Positions 51,197 to 54,100 of a DNA stretch of 64,000 nucleotides are shown here, piece by piece; the first letter of the stretch is position 1; each line of letters begins with the position of its first letter. Made by a program: the position numbers and the translations under genes. Location: assembly GCA_051294375.1 (NCBI GenBank), contig CM119268.1, positions 1,757,486 through 1,821,485 on the forward strand, in the 5' to 3' direction. This DNA is from Paraspadella gotoi (lineage: Eukaryota > Animalia > Chaetognatha). The notes beneath the pieces are model-generated. The model saw only the letters and a program-made list of their open reading frames with translations. It had not been told where the DNA came from and made no database searches.

Positions 51197-54100
51197 ATGC
51201 CTCTCGCGTCTATCCTGCTCAACCGCGCCTCGTATTCGCGGACTCGAAGTTTGCGTCGTTTAGCCAAGATAGCGACTTGGAACCACTCGTCCCCCGAAGC
51301 TCCCGTCAGAAAACTGCTCGCTCGACTGACCAACTCTTCCACGCAGTCTCATTCCCTCCTGGCCGGCTTCCCCCAGATTTCCGTCTTTCTCGGCCGCCAC
51401 GCCTCCGCCTTTTGGGTCCTCGTCGCCGATTGGCGTTCTCGCGGCATTTACAGATTCGCCAACGAAGACGGGGAAAAGTTTTCTCCGCTGCCCAAAAATC
51501 CTTTCGCCTCGTCATCTTCGTCTAAGAAAGAGCAGACTAAACGAGACGACGACGACGACGAAGAAGAAGACGAAGATGAGAAAAAGAAAAAGACCAGAGT
51601 CCTAGCATTTGCTTCATTAGTATCCTGCGCGTTAGCTCTCTACTTGTCTACTTCATTTTTAAATCAAGGCCCGAACGCCGACGTTGATGGAGGAATAAGG
51701 TAGAGTTTGAATTAGTATATTAGGTACTGCGGCGAATCCGCCTCCCGTGTAGCTTGAAACTCAGCTCGTCCCATTGGCTTGGACAGCTAAGTACTCGTTC
51801 ACCAACCGTGAGTTCCGGGTTCAATCCCTTCATGGTCACGCTGGTTAAAGTGTGATGGTGTCGGCATAAACACGCCAGTGACATGGGGTGGTCACTGCAG
51901 GTCCAAAGCCCTGAGCGCCAGCTGTCGGGAGATGCCTCAAACCCCGGGCATCACACATGTCTCCCCGTTGCCATAGTACTCTTGTATAATAATTAGGTGA
52001 GAAATTCACTTCTTTGCCTTGGCTGTCGTCTGTCGTCATATAGGTCGCAACTAGCAACCAAGTAAGAAAAGATTTCACAATTTTACAAATGGATATTTTT
52101 TCTTCTTCCTGAATTCAAAACATAAGATTCGTCTCCTGGAACGAATTCGTGGGCGAAATGCTCTCTCACGGCGAAGTGAAGCAACTCATGGTGTTCCCTG
52201 AATCGGAGACGGTCCTCATCGAGCTTTACCCCGGAGCTGTGGTCAAGGGCAAGCCTTCCAGGTCACGCTTCTATCGTCTTAAGATAACCGGCGTTCAAAA
52301 GTTCGAGGATAAACTGAGAAAGACGGAACAAGAGCTCGGGATTCCCGAACACGGAAGAGTGCCGCTTATCTACAAGCGAGTGTCCGACGCGGGAAATCTT
52401 TTCTTTTCCCTTGGTGAGAGAAAAGGGAAAGTAAGTTTCTCTTCTTCGGCAATTGGCTAAGAAATTGTATAGTCTCAGAAATTCCGCATTCTCCCCCTTT
52501 CAGCCGCAGTCGGCATCGTTTTGGCGGTAATTTACTATGTCTTCAAGGGGCTTCAGTCTGGACTATCGATGACCATGACGAATTTTACCAAAGCTAAATT
52601 CACCATCATCGACCCATCGAAGCCGGGTACTGGAAAACTGACGAGCTTCAAGGTTCGATACTTTGATATACCCAGTTTATATTATTAAAATTCAATTGAG
52701 AGACTCCTTTTTTATTTTGGTTAAATCTTGCTTCAGGACGTCGCCGGAATGGAGGAAGCCAAGAAGGAAGTGTTAGAGTTCGTCGATTATCTCAAAAATC
52801 CCACTCGCTTCAAAGATTTGGGAGCCAAAGCGCCCCGTGGAGCCCTCCTGCTCGGACCCCCTGGCTGCGGAAAGACTCTTCTGGCCAAAGCCGTCGCGGC
52901 CGAAGCTAACGTAAAAAAAAAAGAGATCTATTGCCCCCCCCCCCCGACTGACTGACCGACTCCCGCCTTTTGTCGCTCAGGTCCCGTTCCTGACCATGGC
53001 TGGGTCCGAGTTCGTCGAGATGATCGGGGGTCTCGGCGCCGCCAGGGTGCGAGACCTCTTCACCGAGGCGCGGAAGAGGACTCCCTGTATCGTCTACATC
53101 GACGAGATCGACGCCATGGGGCGACGCCGCGCGGAGAACAACGCCAGTTACGGCGGATCGGGCGAGGAGGAGCAGACGCTTAACCAGCTGCTCGTCGGTC
53201 AGTTTTTCCTTGTTGACTTTCGCCGTGGTGATTTAAACTGAAATTTTTATACAAAGCCAATGTAACTACGGTAATTTGTTCTGACTTCCGGCGTTCTTCC
53301 GTCTACTATTGTTATTATTTAAAAACACTTTGGTTGTCCATCAGTTAGTTTTTCGTTATTCCATTTGCAGAGATGGACGGGATGACGACGACCGAGGGTG
53401 TCATCATGCTGGCCTCGACCAACCGCGACGACATTCTGGACCGCGCCTTGCTCCGTCCGGGGAGGTTCGACCGACGTATCGAGATCGACCCGCCGACGGC
53501 CGAAGAGCGAAAGGCCATCTTCGAGGTCTACTTGAGCAAACTGACGCTAGAGAAAAGCTCCGAGGCCTATTCGCGGCGCCTCTCCTCTTTGACGCCGGGG
53601 ATGTCTGGTTAGTTTTGGAGATGAGGTACAGATAAAGATTGACATTATCATGTAGTTAGTTTTGTTCGTTTAGTTTTTTCGTCTCACGTAACAATTTAAA
53701 GGTGCGGATATCGCCAATGTGGTGAACGAGGCGGCGTTGCACGCGGCGCGAGAGGGACAAAAGACAGTCGCCGGTCCCAACTTCGATCACGCCCTCGAGC
53801 GCGTCATCTTTGGGACTGAGAAGAAAAGTCAAACTGTGCAGGTCCGATCATTTCGATTAATATTCAAGCGTAGCTTGTCCCGATCGTAATATTTTGCCCT
53901 ACAGCGTGAAGAAAGACGAATCCTGGCTTATCACGAGTCTGGCCACGCCCTTTGTGGCTGGTTACTGGAGCACACCGATGCTCCTATGAAGATCTCTATC
54001 GCCCCGCGGACCAACAGCATGCTTGGGTTTTCTCAGACGGCGCCCTCCGACCAAAAACTCTACTCGAAGGAGCAGCTTTTCGACAGGATGTGCATGGCGC

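Follow-up and report, generated by a model that had tools for sequence, protein, structure and literature searches.

The first intron of an SPG7/paraplegin-like gene in the window (the whole 64-kb stretch of DNA analysed in the present work) contains one copy of a short dispersed repeat in which a twister ribozyme motif of the P5 permutation directly follows a tRNA-like segment. The explanation that we favour, and hold to be somewhat likelier true than false, is that this copy is a SINE-type retroposon carrying a gated twister behind a probably tRNA-derived head, with an off-state of the ribozyme that is predicted from folding. A high-copy family that has a complete twister behind its head and that is apparently mostly full length tests how a mobile RNA controls self-cleavage, and as a twister-bearing repeat family it is also a natural test of the purpose of eukaryotic twisters; the 83-nt core, the decoy hairpin and the palindromic P1 described below make the question of gating a testable one.

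Table 1. Positions of the features discussed in the text, in window coordinates
Feature	Position	Strand	Basis
SPG7/paraplegin-like host gene, 10 exons	51197..54722	+	open frame, PDB match
Host intron 1, GT..AG, 427 nt	51700..52126	+	
GTACT, left candidate target duplication (4-5 bp)	51724..51728	.	sequence; another copy seems aligned to 51725
High-copy dispersed repeat copy, SINE-like	51729..51975	+	contig pile-up, loose ends
5' extension: short hairpin and second partial A-box-like half	51729..51767	+	contigs, two similar halves
Decayed tRNA-like segment, positions 1-73	51768..51839	+	own cloverleaf score
A-box-like	51775-86	+	cloverleaf geometry
B-box match	51818..51828	+	sequence; alone not above chance
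Predicted decoy hairpin, 7 bp, -8.3 kcal/mol	51836..51855	+	folding
Twister ribozyme motif, P5 permutation, with P3	51840..51922	+	Rfam, descriptor, pair check
P5	51840-44/51918-22	+	5/5 pairs complementary
P2	51850-53/51870-73	+	4/4 pairs complementary
Conserved GA of L1	51854-55	+	sequence
Pseudoknot T1	51856-58/51903-05	+	3/3 pairs
P1 segment, loopless self-complementary 8-mer	51859..51866	+	sequence, pairing
UAA of L1	51867-69	+	sequence
Expected cleavage site U/A	51867..51868	+	position in L1 UAA, by homology
Pseudoknot T2	51874-75/51908-09	+	2/2 pairs
P3	51876-82/51891-97	+	7/7 pairs complementary
P4	51898-901/51910-13	+	4/4 pairs complementary
3' stem-loop, then 10 nt to fixed 3' end, then A/T-rich variable sequence	51927..51965	+	
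GTACT, right copy of candidate target duplication	51976..51980	.	sequence
Second repeat family piece	19435-19690	-	dispersed repeat
Second repeat family piece	48385-48625	-	dispersed repeat; 22 nt lost beside ribozyme
Second repeat family, short 3'-end pieces	3000-3035 (+), 35114-35144 (-)		

The twister motif

The earlier note on this DNA had described a P5-permuted twister in sense orientation in SPG7 intron 1, and this description is borne out: the motif is on the plus strand within 51700-52126, and all of the elements that had been named are where they had been placed, in P5 order. The pseudoknot T1 is among them, with three pairs rather than the four that had been read, and P1, which was absent from the list, is found at 51859-66. 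Both pseudoknots are complementary (3 bp in T1 and 2 bp in T2). From its place in L1, which we take to be the exact position of the general-base guanine, it follows that the putative catalytic residue is G51854. The passages of PMC5408937 used here identify the guanine in twister L1 as a general base and report that cleavage is possible without P1. When the site is compared with the S. mansoni twisters tabulated in PMC8501958 (Table 1), the part of that source on which the comparison draws, P2, P4, the GA and UAA of L1, the GC of L2 and the L4 consensus are all found, and the helices differ by double-sided changes at three pairs of P2, one of P4 and one of T1, with no pair broken. As sequence and structure the twister is real; its self-cleavage is predicted.

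A descriptor built from the same table (and written after the site had been seen) has a single match on the two strands of the 64 kb, at 51840-51922, and none in 1,500 dinucleotide-shuffled windows. A version that required a 4-bp T1 was rejected, since it missed the site, where T1 has 3 bp, and matched one of 500 shuffles. The covariance-model search that the earlier note had asked for did not find a twister at the Rfam gathering threshold: the best match at the site is to twister-P1 (21.4 bits against a gathering threshold of 67.2, E 0.068 on 701 nt), and among the matches listed there is none to the Twister-P5 model at 51840-51922. The low score is likely to have arisen because P3 is missing from the P5 model, which also expects P1 to be long. 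The P1-type alternative fold that the Rfam match implies (51863-66 with 51933-36) was also rejected, as it has a predicted probability of 0.0 and lacks the GA. The folding stability of the core is ordinary (z -0.55), and no hammerhead was detected in the window up to E 10. The raw counts of variants among copies of the repeat give 1 of 34 catalytic-core positions against 32 of 134 others (p 0.003), and depth-adjusted counts give 1 of 34 against 15 of 134 (p 0.12).

The search of metagenomes for relatives of the element gave no matches, the nine loci considered having no homology outside the twister motif, and none were found in viral contigs (22 loci) or in phage records. Three of the loci from phage and metagenome sequences contain pairs of P5 twisters that are 170-310 nt apart: L018 (398-463 and 709-766), L020 (397-454 and 678-733) and the metagenome locus L030 (497-556 and 668-719), in which T1 is UGG/CCA, as it is in the window.

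The dispersed repeat and its tRNA-like head

Four runs, belonging to three studies, supplied contigs that were aligned on 51150-52700; one of the runs may be the source of the assembly. Of these contigs, 3,014 of 4,416,630, 1,516 of 639,492, 1,112 of 597,646 and 238 of 448,509 matched; that the last run, X9, is RNA is a guess, and it is not counted as evidence of expression. The summed depth is concentrated on about 51755-51975, where it climbs to 358,755, the flank having about 100 (run X5), a sum that is not to be read as a copy number. The contigs confirm that the P5-order twister lies in a multi-copy dispersed repeat of SINE size, as the SINE-like reading in the earlier note would have it, and they extend the span, given there as 51768..51922, by at least 30 nt upstream and by about 53 nt at the other end.

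The repeat is roughly 250 bases long and non-coding, without an open reading frame. Its 3' end is at 51975 or possibly 3 nt further, and beyond 51975 the contigs (120, 96, 67 and 19 in the four runs) enter unrelated A/T-rich flanks (agreement 0.43-0.47), which implies distinct insertion sites on the order of 100 or more; the copies probably number from hundreds to the low thousands. The tail beyond this end yields only an A/T-rich consensus of low agreement. At 51755, 66, 57, 48 and 12 contigs have a common upstream consensus (agreement 0.76-0.85), which the loose ends at 51755/51757 share and whose 30 letters are those of 51735-51754 except for two small deletions in the window copy. One contig aligns as far as about 51725, and the 5' end of the repeat is no further downstream than about 51735, probably at 51725-51729; the median loose 5' end in run X1 has 255 letters, which suggests that unique flanks start shortly upstream of it. 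As is expected of a tRNA-derived SINE, the repeat is short and non-coding and has many dispersed copies with defined ends. The majority of the family differs from the window copy at 51829, 51833, 51940 and partly 51946, none of which lies in the ribozyme, and the ribozyme is intact in this majority. The window holds no second copy of the repeat.

The candidate target duplication GTACT is present on both sides of the one copy examined. The insertion is also surrounded by an imperfect 25-bp inverted repeat at 51710-51733 and 51971-51995 (equalled in 8 of 2,000 shuffles, and in 17 of 2,000 for the flanks alone), so that without the insertion the site is expected to form a near-palindrome rich in A/T. 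Most of the minor copy variants at 51780-51950 are C>T or G>A changes, and seven of nine CpG sites vary at 1% or more, the CpG in P2/T2 being among the two exceptions; this hints that the repeat is methylated.

The head is likely to be of tRNA origin. At 51768 the cloverleaf stems have 4/7, 4/4, 3/5 and 3/5 pairs (14 of 21 in all), 17 of 21 invariant features are present, and the site ranks sixth among 125,010 starts by a cloverleaf score that was of our own making and was devised after the site had been seen. The tRNA-derived Pol III head that the earlier note had proposed is partly supported: the geometry favours it, neither Rfam nor ARAGORN finds a tRNA there, and the B box, which is present, is by itself at chance level (two matches against 1.21 expected). 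Position 73 of the tRNA is 51839, and P5 starts at the next base, 51840. The tRNA-like part begins about 40 nt inside the element, which is unusual for a SINE.

A second family of dispersed repeats in the window also bears a twister (Table 1), so that both twister matches in the window lie in dispersed repeats. Its match to Twister-P5, at 19501-19543 on the minus strand, scores 25.8 bits against 37.6, with E 0.0019 on 381 nt and 0.32 window-wide. This twister lacks P3, shows double-sided changes at two pairs of P4, and has AC/GU as T2 and one mismatch in P2; its closing helix is present and its P1 is again a loopless palindrome, the joint chance of a palindromic P1 in both families being about 0.05 given the outer pairs. 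All four pieces of the second family have a 3'-terminal hairpin in common. The heads of the two families align (8 and 4 of 1,000 shuffles, with windows and scoring chosen afterwards), homology of the whole elements is not significant (31 and 80 of 300 shuffles; 119 and 127 of 500), and the second family has no cloverleaf; common ancestry of the families is not claimed. The presence of the second family argues that twisters are kept by selection in the repeats of this genome.

The host gene has an open frame of 782-801 codons (the boundaries of exons 2-4 are not uniquely fixed), and its best PDB match is the paraplegin-like entry 2qz4 (E 8e-27). Its first intron is 427 nt long, as against 63-173 nt for the other eight. 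Elsewhere in the window, long uninterrupted frames at 24725-31042 and 58920-60818 belong to a WDR92/DNAAF10 gene and to TPR genes that we take to resemble TTC21B and RPAP3, suggesting a compact, intron-poor animal genome. The best named matches of WDR92 are at 71-72%, and neither they nor a tree of 32 of the 121 available entries point to a close named relative or to one phylum. A tandem array at 14747-15865 consists of about 21 copies of a 52-54-nt unit, and further local direct or inverted repeats (12026-12135/14009-14130, 16037-16171/17815-17947 and 18375-18440/18719-18784) lie in a gene-poor, microsatellite-rich stretch.

Proposed gating of the ribozyme and competing explanations

According to Kojima 2018 (PMC5786205, in the passages used here), a SINE would be truncated by a ribozyme active behind its head, and that paper explains in this way why LINE 5' ends that bear ribozymes are not taken up by SINEs. 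Behind a Pol III head, cleavage would be expected to remove the promoter, yet the best-supported loose ends of the present repeat pile up at the head and the tail, and it is for this reason that gating of the ribozyme is proposed. The sequence 51837-41 repeats the P2/T2 strand 51871-75, and it is predicted to pair with the strand of P2 at 51850-53 (called the P2 3' strand in our analysis) and with G51854. The resulting decoy hairpin has a pair probability of 1.0 in all 27 of the start and end contexts that were folded, including the intron; it is predicted to form before the ribozyme is completely made and to hide the catalytic guanine in every longer transcript. In the isolated core P5, P3 and P4 form at 0.7-1.0 and the canonical P2 at only 0.10, a slipped P2 being preferred; to reach the active nested fold there is a cost of 4.7 kcal/mol with pseudoknots omitted. 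This cost, again with pseudoknots omitted, is 5.6-5.8 kcal/mol for RNA that starts at 51840 as against 12.0-14.1 kcal/mol when the head is present. As large a penalty is seen with 28 of 200 shuffled heads and with 9 of 200 random segments; being only modestly above these controls, it suggests, but does not establish, that the decoy is there by design. A decoy that keeps the ribozyme off would account for copies that spread intact. The loopless palindromic P1, for its part, is predicted to suit dimers: it has 2 bp and a 4-nt loop as a monomer and forms an 8-bp duplex of -9.5 kcal/mol as a dimer, and folding gives a gain of 15.3 kcal/mol for the RNA dimer.

The mechanism that we favour would begin with Pol III transcription from the internal A and B boxes, and the last bases of the head would pair with P2 and the catalytic guanine before the ribozyme is complete, so that most of the RNA would stay uncut. 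A borrowed reverse transcriptase (of a LINE or of Penelope type) would then copy this uncut RNA, starting at the 3' hairpin, and so give full-length copies. Cleavage would be conditional on loss of the decoy or on the pairing of two RNAs through the palindromic P1, and the insertion in SPG7 would be a tolerated intronic passenger.

Among the competing explanations the one that survives best, although we think it unlikely, is a retrozyme or Penelope-type cycle in which the twister is needed: transcripts of tandem masters would be cut as dimers via the palindromic P1 and might become circles, a Penelope/Naiad enzyme would insert them, and the dispersed copies would be by-products. The loopless palindromic P1 of both families recalls PLE hammerheads (PMC6765202), Naiads are without hammerheads (PMC8557442; both sources as far as the passages used here go), the tRNA-like part is internal, and a P5 permutation, we infer, cannot come from cleaved linear RNA. 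At least three head-to-tail joints occur among the best 15 of 34, a set beside which run X1 has 96 unrelated 3' flanks. Such a cycle is opposed by the distribution of the loose ends, which among the best-supported ones listed never fall at the cut site 51868 in any run but pile up at head and tail, with 5' ends about 65-95% as frequent as 3' ends; the copies appear from this to be mostly full length. It is opposed also by the lack of strand-changing joints among the best 15 of 53 and the best 15 of 34, and by the 25-bp inverted repeat, which at about 70% identity is too decayed for an insertion as young as this one. Two traits of non-LTR retrozymes are missing, since no type I hammerhead was detected in the window and, among the joints listed, the copies are not mostly tandem; a retrozyme-like element, which the earlier note had offered as one reading, would have a tandem layout that is here a minority. 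Joints at 51867-71 were considered as signs of cleavage and rejected, the three readable ones fitting a deletion between short CAC(GC) repeats.

A more improbable course is that an activity of the tRNase Z type cuts the RNA behind position 73 (C51839), which would remove the head and arm the twister, with dimer cleavage via P1; the cut is proposed to leave G51840, the first base of P5. If this were true, the element would be a natural processing-gated ribozyme, a SINE could carry an internal self-cleaver, and there would be a lineage of animal retroposons with a switchable twister that a single genome has retained in two families or more.

It is quite improbable that the element is instead mobilised as DNA (as a MITE or an element of Helentron-associated type) with hairpin ends and the twister as silent cargo. 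The hairpins near both ends, the A/T-rich sites and the complementary termini (10 of 11 pairs), which lie inside the longer imperfect inverted repeat, would suit such an element, but the inverted repeat is mostly beyond the 3' end of the family, where copies differ, the tRNA geometry and the B box would be unexplained, and the compensated ribozyme helices in two families imply selection on RNA.

Just as improbable is the proposal of the earlier note that the monomer twister cuts in any transcript, so that SPG7 pre-mRNA would be cut co-transcriptionally in intron 1. The complete core and its sense orientation are what this proposal needs, P1 is dispensable for cleavage (PMC5408937, in the passages used here), and the energy model is one without pseudoknots; against it, the decoy is predicted to cover P2 and the catalytic guanine in every intron context folded, the SPG7 frame is open, and contigs across the insertion junctions (both sides in run X1, the right side in run X8) carry the insertion, with no joint that skips the element at SPG7 among the joints listed. 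We find no support for routine cutting of the SPG7 intron. A chance resemblance to a twister, which the sub-threshold Rfam score and the near-zero folding z would allow, is very remote in view of the 1,500 shuffles without a match, the double-sided changes relative to known twisters and the location of both window matches in dispersed repeats.

Comparison with known systems

Twisters in animal retroelements are already known as 5'-terminal P1 types, those of the RTE LINE Perere-3 of S. mansoni (PMC8501958). The part of the literature that was searched, which did not extend to Repbase or the original twister lists, contained no description of a tRNA-headed SINE that carries a twister. The Perere-3 T-variants share with the window twister a host that is an animal retroelement, the nucleotides of L1, T2 and L4, and a similar P3 and P4. 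They are described in the passages of that paper used here as P1 types at the 5' end of a protein-coding LINE, with a target duplication at the cut site, whereas the window twister is of P5 type and is internal, behind a head, in an element without an open reading frame. Twister-P5 (RF02684) has the same order, P2'-GA-T1-P1-UAA-P2-T2-P4-L4; in its model P3 is absent and P1 is long, in contrast to the 7-bp P3 and the loopless 8-nt P1 found here.

The hammerheads of PLEs and the animal non-LTR retrozymes, so far as the passages of PMC6765202, PMC7229834 and bioRxiv 10.64898/2026.07.22.740005 that were used describe them, resemble the element in a short palindromic helix adjacent to the core, suggesting dimer cleavage, and in a unit of 170-400 nt; they differ in that the ribozyme is a hammerhead and the units are mostly tandem, and those passages mention no tRNA head.

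The closest parallel is with the schistosome repeats Sm-alpha and Sj-alpha, which, in the relevant passages of PMC6765202 and PMC2770079, are also short high-copy non-coding repeats in which a tRNA-related Pol III promoter is followed by a self-cleaving ribozyme. In those repeats the ribozyme is a hammerhead and the copies are often tandem and cut into monomers, whereas the window element has a P5 twister, copies that are mostly dispersed and unpermuted, and a predicted decoy that masks the ribozyme. By analogy, the best reading is that the element would be the twister counterpart of Sm-alpha, with the ribozyme class swapped.
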